Made by a program: the position numbers and the translations under genes. Of a DNA stretch of 16,992 bases, positions 7,514 to 16,992 are shown in pieces. Source of the stretch: a virus (lineage: Duplodnaviria > Heunggongvirae > Uroviricota > Caudoviricetes); IMG/VR virus record IMGVR_UViG_3300016472_000494. One strand, written 5' to 3'. The notes beneath the pieces were generated by a model. The model had not been told where the DNA came from. It was given only the letters and a program-made list of their open reading frames with translations, and did not search any database. The stretch's first letter is position 1. Each line of letters opens with the position of its first letter.

Positions 7514-8857
7514 ATGAACATCATTGAAGCAGTTTATCATAGCCTGAAGCGCAAAAAATCAGCTGATATTGAAGCTGAGCGCCTGGGTATACCTTTGAGC
7601 CAGTATCAAAGAATAAGAAGTGAGATCATCACAGCAATCAACAAAGTAGGCCAGCAGATGGATGATATCATCCTAAAGCTGGTACAAAACAATCTTTCTG
7701 GCGCCAAATCAGAGCTTTCTGCAGAAGAACAGCTTTTTGAAATGGAACAGCAGCTGGGCATTACAGGTGATATGCGCCATCATGCTGCCAAACCTACTTC
7801 TGTGGTAGAAGTACATGAGGACCTGGAAAGCGGTACCTCTAAGATCACCGGTATCTCTGCTACAGAGCCTCGCAGTGCAGAAGAGATTATCAAGATCCTT
7901 AAGATAGATACTACCAAGTGGAAGCTTTCGCAGTACTGGAACAAAGAAAAAGGTACTAAGTGGCTTGTATCAGCGCTGGTGACCAGGATCCCACAGGCAG
8001 AGCAGGTGCAGAACAACTTTTTAGAACTGCTTTCAGAATACAAACTTCCTCAGTTTGAGCCCATTGACCCCGCAGCTTTCTGGATTAACGCCACGTCTCC
8101 AGAAAGAGTTTGCGGGGTTCTTTCTTTACAGGACCTGCACTTTGGCAAAGTGGGGAATGAAGACATGGGTGAGATCTTGAAAAACTCTATTGAGTACCTG
8201 GTAGCCAAGGGTTACAAGAACTACATGATGGAAAAAGTGATCATGATCATTGGTCCTGATACGCTCAACATGGACACGTTCTCTGGAACCACTACCAAAG
8301 GCACACCGGTGGAGAACTCAGAAATGGCCACAGAAGCGTACTTGAAAGCCTTTGAAGCGCTATCATGGACGATTGCTCACGTCAGACAGTTTTGTGAGAA
8401 CCTTGAAGTGGTGTTTATTTCAGGAAACCACGACAGATTGTCTTCTTTTCACCTGTTGCACGCGCTGTCACAGACATTCAAAGAATGGCCCAACACAGTG
8501 TTCAATATTGACTACGCAGAACGAAAAGTGATCACCTATGGGGACAACATGCTTTGTTTTGAACACGGGGACGTCACCGCTAAGAATAACCCTTTGGTCT
8601 ATGCTGTAGAGTACCCCCAGCAATGGGGTGCTTCCAAGCACCGCATGCTCTATACAGGACACTATCATGGACGCAAAACCAAAGAGGTTATTACAGAAAA
8701 CGAAGAACATGGCTTTATTTCCAGGATCATACCTGCATTGACCAACTCAGACTATTATCATTATCACAACAAGTTTGTAGGCAACAAGCGTTCAGCAATG
8801 TTGCATTTGCATGAAGCTGATAAAGGTTTGATATCAGAGTTTGTATACACTGTGTAA
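7514..8857 (+). CDS. Calcineurin-like metallophosphoesterase with an N-terminal helical/HTH-like region
   Basis: 447 aa. Motifs DLHFG, (G)PD, GNHD, HGD and GHYH occur in canonical order. N-terminal EAERLGIPLSQYQRIR is HTH-like. Confidence 0.85.
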   Translation: MNIIEAVYHSLKRKKSADIEAERLGIPLSQYQRIRSEIITAINKVGQQMDDIILKLVQNNLSGAKSELSAEEQLFEMEQQLGITGDMRHHAAKPTSVVEVHEDLESGTSKITGISATEPRSAEEIIKILKIDTTKWKLSQYWNKEKGTKWLVSALVTRIPQAEQVQNNFLELLSEYKLPQFEPIDPAAFWINATSPERVCGVLSLQDLHFGKVGNEDMGEILKNSIEYLVAKGYKNYMMEKVIMIIGPDTLNMDTFSGTTTKGTPVENSEMATEAYLKAFEALSWTIAHVRQFCENLEVVFISGNHDRLSSFHLLHALSQTFKEWPNTVFNIDYAERKVITYGDNMLCFEHGDVTAKNNPLVYAVEYPQQWGASKHRMLYTGHYHGRKTKEVITENEEHGFISRIIPALTNSDYYHYHNKFVGNKRSAMLHLHEADKGLISEFVYTV

Positions 8858-9507: not shown

Positions 9508-10179
9508 ATGATTACTATATCAGAAGCTGTATCTAGAGTACGTAACATCATAAAATCTGTAAAGCAAGATGCTTTTGTGACTGACAGGTTTTTGTATTCG
9601 CTGATCATGAAGCATGCAAAACTTTTAATGCGTCGTCAGGATAATCTGAACCGCATTATGAAGTTTAACTCTGTTTTTCAAGTGCTTGACTTTGTTGAAC
9701 TTATAGAAGTTGACCGGGCTCAAGCTGATTGTCACTGCATTACTTCAGACTGTTACATAAAACGCACCAAAGAAAAGCTTCCAGCAATGATAGAAGGTTA
9801 TTATGGACCTCTAATTAGGTCTGTAACCTCTATTGATTTTTCTGAGGAACTCACTCCCACTTTTCCTACTACTTATGAGCAGATGAGTCGCCAAAAAACC
9901 TTTAAGTACAACAAAAAGAAATACTACTGGTTTCTTAACGGTTATCTCTACTTTCCAAATCTTGAGTGGGATGCAATACGTATAGAAGGTGTATTTGAAG
10001 GTGACATCAGCCAATATAATTGTACAACTTCTGACAATTGTGTTTCTGTTCAGAATAAGACTATCAATGTTCCTGAATTTTTGTTTTCAGAAATTGAACA
10101 ACTTGTCTTGAGAGATCTTGGAGTAATGCTTCAAATACCTCAGGATACTCAGCAAGATAACAGACACGTGGCACGATAA
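9508..10179 (+). CDS. Tail ring protein, crAss gp40-like
   Basis: 223 aa. QDAFVTDRFLYSLI, FQVLDFVELIEV, RTKEKLP, GYLYF, GVFE and the C-terminal LFSEIEQLVLRDL..P.D..D follow the recalled gp40 ring pattern. Confidence 0.75.
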   Translation: MITISEAVSRVRNIIKSVKQDAFVTDRFLYSLIMKHAKLLMRRQDNLNRIMKFNSVFQVLDFVELIEVDRAQADCHCITSDCYIKRTKEKLPAMIEGYYGPLIRSVTSIDFSEELTPTFPTTYEQMSRQKTFKYNKKKYYWFLNGYLYFPNLEWDAIRIEGVFEGDISQYNCTTSDNCVSVQNKTINVPEFLFSEIEQLVLRDLGVMLQIPQDTQQDNRHVAR

Positions 10180-10191
10180 ACAAGTTAAGCA

Positions 10192-11286
10192 ATGATGACT
10201 GAAGTACAATACAGAAACTTTGACGATGTTCTTGACAGTGTCAGGATTGATCTAAGAAGCTTTGATCTTGAGGGTATGATTGATGCTCAACAGCTCATCA
10301 AGGTTGCCATAAGAGTGAATTACGAACTTGGCCTTAGGGTTAATCCTTCGCGTTCAAAAGCTATAGAGATACACAAAGGCAAGGGCAAATTGCCTAACGA
10401 CTTTTACGTACTCAACTTTGCGCTGCTTTGCGAAGGACATAACGTGCATGACATAGAGCATCCTGACAAAACAAAAACTTATACAGAAGGGTTGCTGGAA
10501 GGTGCTGCTATGGGTCAACAGTCTGCGTTTTATGCACTTGGAAACGTAGTACAGCAACAGACAGTTATTCAAACCCTTGCGCCCGGTGTTAACAATATTA
10601 GTCATGGTCTAAACTCTCAGAACCTTATAGTGCAAGTTATAGGGCCTGATGATACTATTCTTTCATTCAACATACTTACACCAACTACGTCGCTGCTTCA
10701 AATTATTTCTGATGCTCCTGTCAGTATTTCTAATGCTAAGATTATCATCATGGCATCAAGACCTGTTTTTACAGGAGTAAATTCAGCTGTCATTGAGCAA
10801 GATCATGATGGAAAGCACATTATGGCATATAACACGCCAGGAAGACGACATACTTACAATGTGCTTACACCTATGCGCATTGAAAAATCCAAAAGTGTAT
10901 CACCAGACTGCATCAATATTAACAGTAATGACTGGCATACAGCTGTTATAAAGAATGGTTTTTTGGTGACCAACTTTGATGAGGGTGTTGTGTACATAAA
11001 CTATCAGTCTTTAATGGAGGATGACGATGGAAACCTTATGGTGATGGATCATCCTTTAGTAAACGAGTTCTATGAATATGCAATCAAACAGCGCATTTAT
11101 GAGAACCTGTACATGAGTGGTGAAAATGTGGCAAATTTCATGCAACTAGTAGAGCAAAGACTCAAGGCGGCCAGAAATAATGCACTATCCTTTGTTAATA
11201 CACCAGATTTCAGAGAACTTAAGCAGGTGTGGGAAATGAACCGCAAGGCTCAATACCACAAGTACTACAACATGTTTAAGAGATAA
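10192..11286 (+). CDS. Tail ring / tubular protein, crAss gp43-like (P22 gp4-like), with internal insertion
   Basis: 364 aa (start may be 10195). GKLPNDF..L, GFLVTNFDEGVVYINYQSLMEDDDGNLMVMDHP...EYAIKQRI and TPDFREL match the ring-1 pattern. Confidence 0.78.
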   Translation: MMTEVQYRNFDDVLDSVRIDLRSFDLEGMIDAQQLIKVAIRVNYELGLRVNPSRSKAIEIHKGKGKLPNDFYVLNFALLCEGHNVHDIEHPDKTKTYTEGLLEGAAMGQQSAFYALGNVVQQQTVIQTLAPGVNNISHGLNSQNLIVQVIGPDDTILSFNILTPTTSLLQIISDAPVSISNAKIIIMASRPVFTGVNSAVIEQDHDGKHIMAYNTPGRRHTYNVLTPMRIEKSKSVSPDCININSNDWHTAVIKNGFLVTNFDEGVVYINYQSLMEDDDGNLMVMDHPLVNEFYEYAIKQRIYENLYMSGENVANFMQLVEQRLKAARNNALSFVNTPDFRELKQVWEMNRKAQYHKYYNMFKR

Positions 11287-11290
11287 TGCA

Positions 11291-11665
11291 ATGGCCAGTA
11301 AGATATTTAAGCGCAAAATACCTGTTTCAATTTACAGCAGGTACGCAAATCTTTGTGTTGTAAAGAACATGGAAGATATGCAGGCTCAACTTGATAAGAA
11401 GTGCAACGGAATGATAAATGTGATGGACGCAGACGGCGTTGTTTTTGAGTTGTTTAGTTCTAAAGGGCATGAATATTACATAGTTCTGGTTGAAGAACAA
11501 CTTTCTCACAATCTCATTGCGCACGAGGTTTTTCACCTTGCTGTAAAGATGACTTCTGATATTGAAATAAAAGATGAAGAGTCTACAGCATGGCTTATAG
11601 GATATCTTACAGAAGAAGTATACAAGGTGTTGAAATCTAAAAACTACAACATCAAAGAACAATGA
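11291..11665 (+). CDS. Small zincin-like metallopeptidase-fold protein (HEXXH)
   Basis: 124 aa. IAHEVFHLA (H at 11522, H at 11534) with downstream DEESTAWLIGYL, which could supply a third Glu ligand. ATGA overlap with the muzzle gene. Confidence 0.65.
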   Translation: MASKIFKRKIPVSIYSRYANLCVVKNMEDMQAQLDKKCNGMINVMDADGVVFELFSSKGHEYYIVLVEEQLSHNLIAHEVFHLAVKMTSDIEIKDEESTAWLIGYLTEEVYKVLKSKNYNIKEQ

Positions 11666-14600
11666 GCGAGAACTTTAGCAAAAGCAGTGTAACTGAGACG
11701 AACAGTTTTCACAAAGGTATGGTCAAAGACTATACTGACATTTATATGTCAGAGGGGCTTTGGCTTAACGCTGTGAATGCTATCAACAACTCTCATTATG
11801 GAGAGTCAGGCTCTATTGGAAACGAACCTTCTAATGAGTTTTGTGCTACTGTTCCTTACAGCATTATAGGTTTTGCCAATATTTCTCAGACCCGCTGGGT
11901 GATATTTTCCACCAATGACAGTTCTTCAGAGATAGGAATTTTTGATGAAAGTGACTGCAGTTACTCGTTAGTTGTTAACGCAGCATGCCTTAATTTCAAA
12001 AAAACGCACATGATTAGTGCAGTAGTCAAAGGTAACTATGACTGTACTACTTCTGTATATTTTGCAGACAATCTGAATCCTGATCGTGTTCTGAATCTTG
12101 ATCGTGTGCCATATAAAGTAATAGGAGATGCAAATCCTGATCCTAATTGCTATGAACCACTTTATTCAGAAGAGCTGGACTGTGACGCGTTAAGGCTTCA
12201 TCCTTTGGTTACACAACCTTGTGTAAACGTCAACAAAGCTCAAGGCGCAGGTCAGCTAAACAACGGCAGTTATATAGCATGTGTAGCTTATTCTGAAAAT
12301 GGAGTGCGTCTTACAGACTATTCTATTCCAAGCAATCCTCAAGCTATTTGGGATCACTCAGGCATTGGTGGTTCTATTGATATTACTGTTACAAATCTTG
12401 ATCAGAATTTTGAGGAATATGAATTGGTAGTAATAGCTGTTGTCAACCAACAGACTATAGCCAAAAAGATTGGATATTACTCTATACGACAAAGCAAAGT
12501 TACGCTTGATCTGTTTTTACAAAGTCTGCCAACAGTTGACATTAGTCAGATACCACTTAAATCTGTGGTATATGAAAAGAGTGAAAAGATGTTTGAGGTA
12601 AATGACTATCTCATTAGAACAGGTGTTACTACACAACCATATTTTAACTATCAGCCTTTAGCAAATCAGATTAGAGCGTCATGGGTAGCCGCTGAGTATC
12701 CTGTTGACTATTACTGGGGCGGTGGAAACACAGTTGGTTACATGCGTGATGAAGTGTACTCATTTTTTATACGTTGGGTATACAGAACTGGTGCGCGTTC
12801 AGCGTCTTATCATATACCAGGACGTGCAGCTAATTCACTTGACACAACTACTGTTTCTGGTCCAGACTTGCTGACACCTTCTCAAAACAAGGTGTGGCAG
12901 GTGTATGATACTTCTACAAGGTACAACGCCGGTGGAACAACAGCTGATGGCGGTGTTATTATTGCTAAGGGTGACATGTCATACTGGGAGTCTACAGAAC
13001 GTTATCCTGATGATAAGGAACCTATTTGGGATACATTATGTGGCAAACCTATCAGGCACCACAAAATGCCTTCCAATGAAACAATTCATATTCATAATCA
13101 AGGAGGTACAAAAATTATTGTTCTTGGTGTTGAGTTTTACAATATTGCTCATCCTGTAGATGAAAATAATCAGCCAATAACAGACATTATTGGTTATGAG
13201 ATTCTGAGAGGTTCGCGTGAAGGCAACCGTACTATTGTTGCAAAAGGCTTGTTTAACAACATGCTGGAGTATAATCTTGCAGGTAACAACTCAAGAAAAG
13301 GTCTTATTCAGAACTATCCTTATAATGATCTGCGTCCAGATAACTTTCTGACAGATGATTATTCTATTTTAGATAGTGGCAGTGCTAACCCAGGCACAAT
13401 TGAGTCAGCATCAAAGCTCTCTAACTACAAAAGAGATATTTTTTCTTTTCACTCTCCTGAGACAAACTTTGTAAAACCTTACCTGGGTGGAAACTACGTA
13501 AAGCTTTACACAGAAGAGAGAGGCACTGTTACAGGTCGTTATGAATTTCCAGAAAAGCACCCCAAACATGTATTGCTTTCAGACGGAGCTTTTGCTATTG
13601 CAGCAGTTGTTGGAGCTGGTATAGCGTTACTAAATGCTCTTGGTAAAACAACTTATTCAGGTACAGTTGAAGCAGGAGTTGTTGTTGCAGGTGCTTCTAC
13701 AGGATCTTCAACAGAGTCTGGACCTGCCACTATTTTACCTGCGCTTATCGCAGGAGCAGTTCAAAATCCTGTAGGCGCTGGTGTTAATGCTGTTGGTGTT
13801 GGACTATTGGCAGCAAGCAGTCTTTACTATTTTGGTCAAGGAATAGACCAGGTTTTAGAAGTTTTGAGAAACCTGTCTAAAGATCGCCAGTACATGCTGC
13901 AGTATAATTCTCATGGATTTTACTCTAGTTTTTCTAATGTGAGTAATAGTTCTGTGCCAGGAGGATTACAAAAGTCTATTAGACGTCAAATTGTACCATC
14001 ATCTGCCAAGTATGTAGGATCAGGCTTGCACGATTTTGATGCAACATATAGGATTAACAATCTTAATCGCAACAAGTATGTAGCATTAAAACTTTCATCA
14101 ACTGTGTCAGACCCTGTGAGTGGACAAGATAATACAAAGCATAGAGTAAAAGATGGTGGTGTTACTCACAGTGAACCTTTGAAAAATGAAATCACTACAA
14201 CTACTGTTGCTTATTATGGTGCTGTAAAGGTAGATTTTCAAAACCAATATGGCCAATTAAGTTCAGTTGTACAGATTCCTACGGGATCATGTGTGTTTTT
14301 GACATCAAGTGAAACAGAGCAAAGATTTACATCAGGTCCAATTTTTGGTGGAGATGTGTACATAAATCGTTACACAGAAAAGAATCCTTACATGTTCTTT
14401 AACACCTGGATGTATGACATGCCAAACAGGACTGAGTATGATTATCGTAACTATGTAAATGGTCCTGTGCCGCGTTACTGGGTAAATTTTGAAAAATATG
14501 ACGCGCAAGACTTTACCATACGCGTTTTTCCAAATGGTATTTTTACATTACCTATAATTGACATTAACACACCAAGTGACTTTCATCGCTTAGATCGTCC

Positions 14601-16329
14601 AAGTTCTATAACAGGGGCTTTGACAGTAAAAAATAGTTATGCGTATTTGTTTCACAATGGTGTGAGAGATTTCTTTACAGAGAGTGAACTGAACATGGCA
14701 TATCGCGACTATGGTCAGGAATCTTATGAGAAATTCTATGATGTTTATGGAAATTCCTTTAATGATTTGAGCACAATGTTCAGATCTGATCTTATCACAA
14801 AACCAATCTTTTTTAAGTATGACTTATCTCTCAGCGCATCAAAACTTTTCAACAACTTTGCATCATGGGCTTCTATACTCCCCCGTGACTACGACCCTAG
14901 GCTATACACCACATGCTTTGAATATTACCCTGATAGAGGAATATACTCCCTCCAACAGCAGTCTGGACTTAGACGAGATAATTGGAGAAATTATCTTGCG
15001 CTTAACTACAAAGACTTCTCAGGAAAAATAAGTACAATTAAGAATCTTAATGCTACAGGCGCTATGATTCTTTTTGAGGATGCTGAACCTGTAATGTTTG
15101 TAGGTGTAGATCAGCTTCAGACAACAGGGGGTGTTAAACTGACCATTGGCGATGGAGGTCTGTTTCAAGGAAACATGCAAGCTCTTGTTAATGCTGATGA
15201 CACCATTGGATATGCAAGTAGCATATCATCTAGGGCAGCAGTTAACACACCTCATGGTTTATTTTTTGTTTCACAGCAGTCAGGCAAAATTATGCAGTAT
15301 GCTGGAGGAATGACGGAAATTTCACGCAATGGTATGAAGTTTTGGTTTAATGAAAATCTTCCCAGCAAGTTTTTAAAAGCATATCCTGACTATCCATACT
15401 ATGACAACCCTGTTGTTGGAATTGGTATACAAGCTGTATATGATCCACAATATGAACTTGTGTATTTTACAAAGCGTGACTATGTGCCGTTAAGAAACGA
15501 CCTGATGTTTGATGATCCTTCAGGTGTGCCTTACTTTGTGACTGTGTCTGGTTCTGGAAATAATCCTGTAATTACCAAAACTTTTTGTACTTTTGACAAT
15601 CCTGCAGTATTCAAGCCTTGTCACTGGACAGTGAGTTATGATCCTAAAAATAAGCAGTGGATAAGTTTTCATGATTGGAAACCAACTCTGTTAATACCTT
15701 CCTTTAGACATTTTCTTTCAATTAAAGACAATGCTATTTGGAGACATAACAACCGCTGGGACAGTTATTGCAATTACTATGGCACAAACTACGCATGGGA
15801 AATTGAGTATCCTGTGGTTACGCCAAACGCTGTAACCACGCTTAGAAGTGTAGAATACACCTTGGATGTTTACAAGTTTTACAATGACGGGAAAGATTTT
15901 CATCATGTTATTGATGAGAATTTTGACAGGGCTGTGCTTTACAATTCTGAACAGATTTCAGGGCTTCTTAAATTAAGAATTAAAGGCAAGAATGCTCCAT
16001 TAGACTTGGTCAACTACCCACAAATTTCTACCAGTGGTATAGAGATTCTGTTTTCAAAAGAAGAAAACAAGTACAGGTTTAATCAGTTTTGGGATGTTAC
16101 AAAAGATCGCGGTGAATTTACAACTGCGCGTGAACCAATGTGGAATACAGAATGTGCTGGTGTTCAGAAGATTATTAACCCTGACTACATTGATTACTTT
16201 AAGTCACCACTGGAGCGCAAGAAGTTTCGTCACTACGGCAACAACATTATCCTGCGCAAAAACGTCAGTGGTGACAAAAAGATGATCTTAAAACTCACAA
16301 ATAGCAAGCATCTCAACAGCTCCAGGTAA
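11662..16329 (+). CDS. Muzzle / tail stabilisation protein (crAss gp44-like, P22 gp10-like)
   Basis: 1555 aa following ring 1. Motifs FHKGMVKD, YMRDEVYSFFIRW, GYEILRG, FHSPE, FGGDVYINRYT, propeller-like C-terminal repeats and W.SFHDW.P are typical of crAss-like muzzle proteins. Confidence 0.85.
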   Translation: MSENFSKSSVTETNSFHKGMVKDYTDIYMSEGLWLNAVNAINNSHYGESGSIGNEPSNEFCATVPYSIIGFANISQTRWVIFSTNDSSSEIGIFDESDCSYSLVVNAACLNFKKTHMISAVVKGNYDCTTSVYFADNLNPDRVLNLDRVPYKVIGDANPDPNCYEPLYSEELDCDALRLHPLVTQPCVNVNKAQGAGQLNNGSYIACVAYSENGVRLTDYSIPSNPQAIWDHSGIGGSIDITVTNLDQNFEEYELVVIAVVNQQTIAKKIGYYSIRQSKVTLDLFLQSLPTVDISQIPLKSVVYEKSEKMFEVNDYLIRTGVTTQPYFNYQPLANQIRASWVAAEYPVDYYWGGGNTVGYMRDEVYSFFIRWVYRTGARSASYHIPGRAANSLDTTTVSGPDLLTPSQNKVWQVYDTSTRYNAGGTTADGGVIIAKGDMSYWESTERYPDDKEPIWDTLCGKPIRHHKMPSNETIHIHNQGGTKIIVLGVEFYNIAHPVDENNQPITDIIGYEILRGSREGNRTIVAKGLFNNMLEYNLAGNNSRKGLIQNYPYNDLRPDNFLTDDYSILDSGSANPGTIESASKLSNYKRDIFSFHSPETNFVKPYLGGNYVKLYTEERGTVTGRYEFPEKHPKHVLLSDGAFAIAAVVGAGIALLNALGKTTYSGTVEAGVVVAGASTGSSTESGPATILPALIAGAVQNPVGAGVNAVGVGLLAASSLYYFGQGIDQVLEVLRNLSKDRQYMLQYNSHGFYSSFSNVSNSSVPGGLQKSIRRQIVPSSAKYVGSGLHDFDATYRINNLNRNKYVALKLSSTVSDPVSGQDNTKHRVKDGGVTHSEPLKNEITTTTVAYYGAVKVDFQNQYGQLSSVVQIPTGSCVFLTSSETEQRFTSGPIFGGDVYINRYTEKNPYMFFNTWMYDMPNRTEYDYRNYVNGPVPRYWVNFEKYDAQDFTIRVFPNGIFTLPIIDINTPSDFHRLDRPSSITGALTVKNSYAYLFHNGVRDFFTESELNMAYRDYGQESYEKFYDVYGNSFNDLSTMFRSDLITKPIFFKYDLSLSASKLFNNFASWASILPRDYDPRLYTTCFEYYPDRGIYSLQQQSGLRRDNWRNYLALNYKDFSGKISTIKNLNATGAMILFEDAEPVMFVGVDQLQTTGGVKLTIGDGGLFQGNMQALVNADDTIGYASSISSRAAVNTPHGLFFVSQQSGKIMQYAGGMTEISRNGMKFWFNENLPSKFLKAYPDYPYYDNPVVGIGIQAVYDPQYELVYFTKRDYVPLRNDLMFDDPSGVPYFVTVSGSGNNPVITKTFCTFDNPAVFKPCHWTVSYDPKNKQWISFHDWKPTLLIPSFRHFLSIKDNAIWRHNNRWDSYCNYYGTNYAWEIEYPVVTPNAVTTLRSVEYTLDVYKFYNDGKDFHHVIDENFDRAVLYNSEQISGLLKLRIKGKNAPLDLVNYPQISTSGIEILFSKEENKYRFNQFWDVTKDRGEFTTAREPMWNTECAGVQKIINPDYIDYFKSPLERKKFRHYGNNIILRKNVSGDKKMILKLTNSKHLNSSR

Positions 16330-16992
16330 TGAAAGGCAATAAGGCAGTGCTTATGAAGTTTCTCTCCACTCAGGCGCAAAAGCTTGCTGGTGAGGATAAC
16401 GTCTTTGTAGACAAAAGCTCTATTGAAGGACAGGGTCTTTTTGCAAACAAAGGTTTCAAAAAAGGTGAGATCATAGGTCTTGCTCACCAGCAGGGACAAC
16501 CTGTAGGACTTACAGGAAACTTTCACAACCATTCATCTTCACCCAATGCTGTCAGTGTAAAAAAAGGTAGCAATCGCTTTCTGGTGGCTGCAAAGAACCT
16601 TCCTGCCGGTGCAGAGATCACATCAGACTACCGCATGCAACCAGAGCTGGAGCAACCTTCTGCTAACTGGATGCAACGTGGTGGATTAACATTTCAACCG
16701 TATTACACGCCTGCTGCTGAATCTACAGGTGCAAACTATACACCAACAATGACTATGCAAGCTGCTGAAAAACTCAAAGCACAACGTGATGCACAGGAGT
16801 TAGCTAGAAGAAGACAGGCAATACAGGCTAGTCAAGCAGCAGCTTCAAAACCTCTTAGAAAACGTTTGACACCAGAAAACTTAGCTCAAGAAACTGGTGC
16901 TACCGGTGATAAACTCAGATTCTTTCCAAATGACCCTGATAGTTTTATTGATGACTATTTAAACCCCTTAAAAATGGTGGGAGATATGGCAT
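16329..16992 (+). CDS. SET-domain-containing protein at the cargo/ejection-protein position; 3' truncated, absent from the ORF track
   Basis: Starts at the TAATG overlap and has no stop through 16992 (221 codons). MKGNKAVLMKFLSTQAQKLAGEDNVFVDKSSIEGQGLFANKGFKKGEIIG...GNFHNHSSSPNA...LVAAKNLPAGAEITSDYRMQPELEQPSANWMQRGG... shows SET motifs GxGLFA, NHSxxPN and EITxDY. Confidence 0.85.
   Translation, partial: MKGNKAVLMKFLSTQAQKLAGEDNVFVDKSSIEGQGLFANKGFKKGEIIGLAHQQGQPVGLTGNFHNHSSSPNAVSVKKGSNRFLVAAKNLPAGAEITSDYRMQPELEQPSANWMQRGGLTFQPYYTPAAESTGANYTPTMTMQAAEKLKAQRDAQELARRRQAIQASQAAASKPLRKRLTPENLAQETGATGDKLRFFPNDPDSFIDDYLNPLKMVGDMA

Follow-up and report, generated by a model that had tools for sequence, protein, structure and literature searches.

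A short SET domain as the swappable head of a cargo-type protein encoded directly after the muzzle gene of an uncultured crAss-like phage

The stretch of DNA analysed here (the window; 16,992 nucleotides, virus record IMGVR_UViG_3300016472_000494) comes from an uncultured freshwater crAss-like phage and ends within a gene whose first part encodes a very short SET domain, called the mini-SET below. Coordinates are those of the window, and the features described are located on its plus strand unless stated otherwise. The open reading frame (ORF) in question spans 16329-16992, comprises 221 codons and is 3'-open at the window end. Its ATG shares one base with the TAA stop codon of the preceding gene, a homologue of the muzzle (the tail-tip gatekeeper); this overlap (TAATG, 16327-16331) was read directly from the sequence and confirms the coupling reported in an earlier note, which had been made from the letters of this DNA alone. 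The encoded polypeptide begins with an N-terminal leader (residues 1-19, 16329-16385) of the pattern MK..K..LMKF.STQ..K, which, according to the comparison of N-termini, is kept when the head module differs. The mini-SET follows at residues 23-113 (16395-16667), as determined from Pfam, the family profile, the AF2 model, Foldseek and conservation. It contains the motifs GQG (residues 34-36, 16428-16436), HNHSSSPN (residues 66-73, 16524-16547) and EITSDY (residues 96-101, 16614-16631, with the Tyr101 codon at 16629-16631), together with a QPELEQP tail (16638-16658). The peptides that had been quoted for 16401-16631 are found there and correspond to residues 25-101. An MQRGG hinge (residues 115-119, 16671-16685) separates the SET cassette from the module that follows. 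Behind it lies the start of a shared scaffold module (residues 120-221, 16686-16992), with the Ala/Gln/Arg-rich helical stretch that had been described as following MQRGG and a conserved GDKLRFFPNDPDSFIDDYLNP block; the gene continues past the window. Not a single Cys occurs within residues 1-125, which agrees with the reported absence of a post-SET Cys cluster. An ORF of 99 codons (16233-16532, minus strand) lies antisense to the muzzle/cargo junction and to the SET-encoding part; as it is the plus-strand frame that is conserved at the protein level, this ORF is probably spurious.

The identity of the mini-SET was established by several comparisons. The search with the Pfam SET model (PF00856), which the earlier note had proposed as a check, gave a match to the C-terminal half of the model at E 1.6e-7, with 32.1 bits where the gathering cut-off is 22.4, and the same model was matched by 47 of 49 large mini-SET relatives. 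The best single-sequence match in the PDB was the chlorovirus enzyme vSET. When a profile built from 77 family sequences was used, 123 solved SET chains were matched at E<=1, vSET again being the best (3.4e-7); the 60 of these 123 matches that were listed are SET lysine methyltransferases, except 4rz0, a putative histone methyltransferase. The AF2 model of the mini-SET region, calculated from the family alignment, reached a mean pLDDT (predicted local distance difference test) of 83, with values >90 across a core of ~80 residues. This model gave 193 Foldseek matches in the PDB at E<=1e-3, with vSET at the top (E 8.5e-7; template modelling (TM) scores 0.65/0.66), and the best 50 of the 193 are SET enzymes throughout, one of them (4rz0) putative. 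Among the predicted viral structures of BFVD, the top match was a 971-aa 'SET domain-containing protein' of an uncultured virus (TM 0.78, query-normalised), followed by giant-virus SET proteins of ~100 and 128 aa. Both a SET match and a SET fold, the absence of which had been named as grounds for giving up the proposal, are present, and the reading of the two motifs as the cofactor-binding and catalytic-Tyr motifs of a SET domain is borne out by Pfam, profile and fold alike. The mini-SET is a genuine SET protein-lysine methyltransferase domain of ~90 residues and is very probably active. The earlier description of a short SET domain holds, with one correction: the size given then, ~77 aa, is too small, since the conserved unit extends over residues 23-113 and includes an invariant YRxQPELEQP tail. 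The statement that an i-SET insert is almost missing also proved correct, as there are 12 residues here where vSET, from its first beta-hairpin to the NHS motif, has residues 31-63.

The mini-SET belongs to a large family. A phmmer search with residues 1-125 returned 807 clusters (representatives at 50% identity) at E<=1e-3, and 254 of them at E<=1e-10. In 126 of the 160 copies (~50% identical) examined by a local re-scan, the domain is N-terminal, and the proteins carrying it are mostly of ~1000 aa. Tandem mini-SET pairs, ~120-330 residues apart, were observed in the giant proteins P0123, P0124, P0125 and P0126 (676-1952 aa). The conserved core of the 160 copies contains zero indels. Invariant positions are S30, I32, G36, G50, H53, G63, E96, T98 and Y101, while HNH 66-68, P72, R83 and the tail Y-R-x-QPELEQP are near-invariant. 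In the GxG motif, which binds the cofactor S-adenosylmethionine (SAM) and aligns with GYG of vSET, G36 of G34-Q-G36 is invariant and G34 is present in 84% of the copies. In the NHS..PN motif (H66-N67-H68-S69-S-S-P72-N73), aligned with NHSKDPN of vSET, the residues H, N, H and P are conserved in 95-98%. Y101 of the catalytic-Tyr motif E96-I-T-S-D-Y101 aligns with Tyr105 of vSET. This pattern points to clear purifying selection on the catalytic motifs, and, because the invariant positions are those of SAM binding and catalysis (GxG, NHS..PN and the catalytic Tyr), it argues for an active enzyme rather than a relic.

The remainder of the gene was read from a near-identical 26.5-kb virus record, in which the window corresponds to G000:C1:2277-19268 on the minus strand. 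Window and record agree fully over the last 613 bases and differ by 75 mismatches, each of them before position 16380; the sequence past the window is most likely the continuation of the same gene. In the record, the full gene has 871 codons (protein P0002; L002:328-2943, minus strand). Recovery of the full ORF, suggested earlier as a check, yielded in this way a long protein of the cargo or polyvalent type. From the N-terminus, the leader and the mini-SET are succeeded by the Gly-Gly hinge, by a helical module with Gly/Ala-rich hydrophobic sequence, by the zincin-like HExxH module and DUF5872, and lastly by a tail. When 120 relatives were mapped by BLAST, the modules resolved were 1-120 (SET), 116-311, 241-462, 450-700, 692-780 (DUF5872) and 780-871. 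The best-conserved part of the 116-330 module is a Gly/Ala-rich hydrophobic segment at residues 237-262 (QGNYG.AAL.VA.PLA.GALAG.GAK).

The HExxH module (residues ~470-680) carries AAHETGHYY and a downstream NE.RERAAQLKD, both invariant in 25 relatives, and was modelled by AF2 with a pLDDT of 77.5. It had zero Foldseek matches in the PDB at E<=1e-3, only a chance-level match when its profile was compared with PDB sequences, and no match in the Pfam scan of P0002. Its matches in the AFDB clusters were uncharacterised proteins at E 7.5e-5 and, at E 0.03, a protein named 'Large polyvalent protein associated domain'. Zincin metallopeptidases made up most of the list from the VIA structural aligner, but the top Z was no more than 6.0, and the Atlas lead pointed to LPD23. 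Taken from the motif, the VIA list and the AFDB matches, the module is probably a zincin-like peptidase, the hub domain of polyvalent proteins (PMC5512222). DUF5872 occupies residues 698-763, and no functional literature on this domain was found. The next gene (L002:1-282, minus strand, ending at the contig end) is modular as well and starts with the N-terminal half of DUF5872; DUF5872 seems to consist of two separable sub-motifs, because the cargo gene has the C-terminal half. The combination of SET (23-113), the zincin-like module (~470-680) and DUF5872 (698-763) in one polypeptide is an architecture typical of phage polyvalent proteins.

The borders of these modules coincide with Q-x-G-G motifs, namely MQRGG (GG at 118-119), QDGGQHGG (~692-699, GG at 695-696/699-700) and KQDGG (774-778, GG at 777-778), and a mosaic break point of the BLAST map falls at residues 116-120. 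A GG is present at the MQRGG position in 73-81% of the 160 mini-SET copies. In the family as a whole, Q.GG occurs 401 times against 53 +/- 7 in shuffled sequences, an approximately 7-fold excess that is inflated by the relatedness of the sequences. These motifs could be flexible hinges, recombination joints or protease sites. Cleavage of MQRGG in the manner of adenain at (M/L/I)xGG was considered and rejected owing to a mismatch in register (Gln, not Met, at P4), so that it stands as a loose analogy only. The gene after the cargo gene also carries motifs of this kind (MMKNGG, KERGGGW and EMGG). A further repeated element, the tag W-L-x-K-Y, is found in P0002 at residues 781-785, after the third hinge (DGG), and at 865-869, right at the C-terminus; 24 of the 120 relatives contain it, 42 times in all, where ~0.5 would be expected.

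Comparison of the N-termini revealed a common frame in which the leader is followed by a head and then by MQRGG. In most relatives, the head is a beta-rich domain of ~55 aa of the type 'RNSPD...IPSG...' (in fuller form RNSPD..IPSG..ITM..V..PV.G), which is referred to here as the default head; it is carried by P0007-P0011, P0019, P0024-P0029 and P0076 and by the proteins encoded at L003:17704-20391 and L004:13566-15053. The default head is 36-49% identical to the N-terminus (~85 residues) of gp040 of Cellulophaga phage phi4:1, a virion protein verified by tandem mass spectrometry (MS/MS), and with the first post-muzzle protein of Leptolyngbya phage Lbo-JY46 it shares 31-48% identity at the N-terminus. 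It may be a part that docks in the tail. In the phage studied here and in a minority of relatives, the SET domain occupies the place of the default head, and in some relatives it is placed after the default head, across a GG hinge. Behind the hinge, residues 116-311 are 82-93% identical to P0024, P0026 and P0028, which have a different head. In a near-isogenic phage whose neighbouring genes are of identical size, a muzzle of 1555 aa among them, the slot holds the default head and DUF5872+LysM+YkuD, and another lineage has ART-PolyVal there. On the 49 mini-SET proteins, tail lysozyme, SLT, LysM, PG-binding, YkuD, ART-PolyVal and putative metallopeptidase domains were also found. The SET domain behaves as a swappable cassette between a conserved leader and a Gly-Gly hinge. 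The differences between window and record are likewise clustered: 33 of the 75 mismatches lie in 16001-16500 (all at or before 16379, in the muzzle 3' end and the leader) and 31 in two muzzle patches (12001-13500). The leader of the window is of the P0004/P0005 type and that of the record of the P0007/P0019 type. These clusters look like recombination joints between co-circulating strains. Near-identical DNA was not found in cultured phages by megablast, and tblastn with the full protein gave only DUF5872-size matches, in marine podophages.

The genomic position of the gene is well defined. Upstream lie, in this order, tail ring protein 2 (9508-10179; Pfam CrAss_Ring_2, E 2e-19), tail ring protein 1 (10192-11286; CrAss_Ring_1, E 5.9e-12), a gene for a protein of 124 aa and the muzzle homologue of 1555 aa (11662-16329; PHROG 37948, virion structural protein, E 5e-70). 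Ring2-Ring1 marks a Crassvirales tail module. In tblastn, the match of the muzzle homologue extends over 82% of phi4:1 gp042, a structural protein verified by mass spectrometry (MS), and in BLASTP it shows a weak, collinear similarity to gp44, the muzzle of PhiCrAss001 (E 6e-6 and 0.014). Besides the window, six other contexts were sampled (P0043, P0014, P0019, P0026, P0123/P0128 and P0132), and in all seven the cargo-type gene begins right at the stop codon of the gene before it. At the five other loci for which DNA was available, the upstream gene is a muzzle homologue (35-69% identity) and the junction reads AG(A/G)TAATGAA; for P0019 and P0128, for which gene order was used, the gene follows Ring2-Ring1 and a gene of muzzle size. 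P0132, a mini-SET of 100 aa, had the appearance of a free, 'stand-alone' bacterial enzyme beside transporter genes. This candidate was rejected, as the gene that precedes it encodes a muzzle homologue (41% identity, E 1e-146) and is joined to it through TAATG; P0132 is probably a truncated or chimeric call, because its contig derives from a 1.49x long-read assembly. The placement of the gene at the cargo position, put forward in the earlier note, is thereby confirmed, and in PhiCrAss001 this slot holds cargo protein C1 (gp45).

The observations are best accommodated by a modular polyvalent cargo protein that is coupled to the muzzle, packaged, extruded N-terminus first and equipped with a SET head for the methylation of a host protein; a probability of about 0.6 is assigned to this proposal. 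In such a scheme, the protein would be made late, together with the muzzle, and packed into the virion. At infection, it would be extruded with its N-terminus leading, and the refolded SET head, supplied with host SAM, would methylate lysines of a host protein, much as T4 Alt ADP-ribosylates host proteins. A role of the head in the periplasm is unlikely, because SAM is absent from this compartment. The connection to gp45 and to cargo is based on the position of the gene and on the head swap with a domain common to an MS-verified virion protein of phi4:1. As to the PhiCrAss001 precedent, which had been cited for both packaging and ejection of the post-muzzle proteins, packaging was demonstrated by MS and cryo-electron microscopy (cryo-EM), and ejection is the model of its authors (PMC10172136). 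Delivery into the host and a host target were offered as an inference in the earlier note too, and everything in its reading that could be computed held. In the comparison with crAss cargo proteins, the position after the muzzle and the head swap agree, and direct sequence homology to gp45 was not found.

Several points weigh against this proposal. The first of them is biochemical. Part of the lysine channel of vSET is lined by a segment of ~34 aa (31-63) that has 12 aa in the mini-SET, and the C-terminal tail, QPELEQP with an aromatic residue, is strongly conserved but was modelled with low confidence (AF2 pLDDT 40-69). With so short a channel segment and so poorly modelled a tail, a lone mini-SET may not be catalytically complete; a possibly incomplete lysine channel is the chief biochemical doubt, and activity is not assured. 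The tail may act as a small post-SET that becomes ordered on cofactor binding. Secondly, the comparison of the 116-330 module with PhiCrAss001 gp45 and phi4:1 gp040 by hhalign gave probabilities of 0.5% and 0.3%, respectively. BLASTP of the protein against gp45 gave no match either, and the label of a gp45 homologue was dropped on account of these two results. Weak matches to gp45, at its residues 356-448, were given only by some of the scaffold relatives with DUF5872 in common (E 5e-6 to 8e-4; database of 12 sequences). Thirdly, the protein studied here does not have the default head that ties its relatives to gp040. Moreover, the 650 codons past the window were taken from a record with 75 mismatches, and at so mosaic a locus the true continuation could differ. 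Finally, the comparisons show domain identity, conserved catalytic motifs, gene position and the swapping of cassettes, and packaging, ejection, activity and target are inferred for every member of the family.

Three other explanations were weighed against delivery into the host. The first of them, that the SET head acts in the producing cell on the phage's own virion or cargo proteins or on itself, for example in protease hardening or in the guidance of assembly, is unlikely. The earlier note had also named this option, for the virion proteins. SAM is present in the producing cell, and translational coupling to the muzzle within a late structural operon would suit such a task, but elsewhere the same scaffold or slot has LysM+YkuD, tail lysozyme, SLT or ART-PolyVal, whose known relatives act on host structures. 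The N-terminal position of the SET domain, in turn, fits an effector that is first out in the PhiCrAss001 model. Still rather improbable is the second explanation, in which the protein is no internal cargo at all, being either a structural protein, external or associated with the tail, or an enzyme made late that stays unpackaged in the cytoplasm, so that SET would act only in the producing cell. It would account for the failure to find direct homology to PhiCrAss001 gp45, and the post-muzzle protein gp041 of phi4:1 is annotated as a tail protein. Nevertheless, all four genes after the phi4:1 muzzle homologue encode MS/MS-verified virion proteins, one of which is gp040, with its head in common with the scaffold relatives. 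Furthermore, packaged polyvalent proteins have this architecture of several enzymes with hinges between them and a zincin-like module (PMC5512222), and a SAM-dependent enzyme on the outside of the virion would be left without its cofactor. The third explanation, a non-catalytic fold that serves as a small plug or for docking in the tail channel and can be exchanged for the default head, is very unlikely: a SET domain that replaces a small non-enzymatic head in the same frame and has nearly lost its i-SET region might suggest it, but a structural role would not need GxG, HNHS..P and E-x-T-x-x-Y, which are what is invariant in 160 diverse copies, and in some proteins SET has been added after the default head instead of replacing it.

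The proposed cargo protein with its SET head can be compared with several known systems. The closest in sequence and fold is vSET (A612L of Paramecium bursaria chlorella virus 1; PDB 1N3J/3KMA), which, like the mini-SET, is viral, is a SET core of stand-alone size without pre-SET or Cys-rich post-SET, and has the same GxG, NHS..PN and catalytic Tyr motifs. However, vSET is a free, dimeric enzyme of 119 aa from a eukaryotic virus and methylates histone H3K27, whereas the host of the phage has no histones. The mini-SET is ~20 aa shorter, has an invariant H53 and the YRxQPELEQP tail of its own, and is the N-terminal fusion partner in a phage protein of ~870 aa. In architecture, the nearest counterparts are the polyvalent proteins (Iyer, Burroughs, Anand, de Souza and Aravind, 2017; PMC5512222). 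In these, too, several unrelated enzyme modules are combined in one large polypeptide whose gene lies beside virion genes; they have a zincin-like HExxH module, which P0002 probably shares, have ART-PolyVal in common with its sister proteins, and are predicted to be packaged and delivered with the DNA; their catalogue includes neither a SET or other protein-lysine methyltransferase module nor crAss-like phages.

With regard to position, the counterpart is gp45 of PhiCrAss001 (cargo protein C1), which MS and cryo-EM place in the virion, its N-terminal part lying within the tail barrel, and which leaves N-terminus first in the model of the authors (PMC10172136). Both genes directly follow the muzzle gene, both proteins are of similar length (842 aa for gp45 and 871 aa here), and both have a Gly/Ala-rich hydrophobic segment in the N-terminal third, segment 237-262 of P0002 resembling in composition the predicted transmembrane helix region of gp45. 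They differ in that sequence similarity between them was not detected and gp45 has no N-terminal enzyme domain. Similarly, gp040 of phi4:1 (YP_008240628.1), encoded two genes after the muzzle homologue, shares its N-terminus with the default head of the slot but is devoid of SET, and outside the swapped head no similarity to the mini-SET protein was detected. The functional model is T4 Alt, an ADP-ribosyltransferase that is carried in the virion, injected, and alters host proteins at the onset of infection (PMC5512222). It differs from the mini-SET in chemistry (ADP-ribosylation with NAD vs methylation with SAM), in its unrelated fold, in the type of phage, and in that the activity of Alt is proven and that of the mini-SET predicted. 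Two further proteins are known from automatic annotation only, and neither a genomic context nor a function or publication was found for them. UniProt A0A218ML49 (uncultured virus, 971 aa) is another large viral protein, in which the SET match covers ~100 of the 971 residues, and a SET protein of Marseillevirus LCMAC101 with ~100 aa indicates that SET proteins of such a size exist elsewhere.

A more far-reaching version of the proposal, which is put forward tentatively, is that the mini-SET leads the first protein out of the virion and, as soon as infection begins, marks a host protein of the nucleoid, transcription, translation or defence. It would then be the methylation counterpart of T4 Alt over hundreds of crAss-like lineages, and the Q-x-G-G hinges may at the same time be cut after delivery, by the zincin-like module of the protein itself or by a phage protease, so that the modules come free. 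SET enzymes, polyvalent proteins and crassvirus cargo are each already known, and SET-annotated phage ORFs are present in databases; among the papers searched, none was found that connects SET domains with Crassvirales, crAss-like phages, polyvalent proteins or phage virions. What the window adds is a clean case of cassette swapping and the size of the family (807 clusters). Phages of the crAss-like type carry several megadaltons of protein in head and tail. To our knowledge, no activity has been assigned to their cargo proteins, except for the virion RNA polymerase. A concrete candidate activity is offered by the conserved SET cassette of ~90 residues with which the first cargo gene opens and for which peptidoglycan enzymes and ADP-ribosyltransferases can be substituted. 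If the protein is injected and active, lysine methylation of host proteins would be a tool of phage take-over or counter-defence in bacteria, and we know of such a tool so far only from eukaryotic viruses and from effectors of intracellular bacteria. An active mini-SET would also be among the smallest SET enzymes and useful for defining the minimal catalytic core.

Two other genes of the window lie within its structural block and are odd among the tail genes. The first, at 7514-8857 on the plus strand, encodes a protein of 447 aa that matches the PHROG 'DNA repair exonuclease' (E 2.6e-45). The second, at 1106-1549 on the same strand, encodes a protein of 147 aa that matches a Dps-like PHROG, 'starvation-inducible regulator' (E 4e-19).

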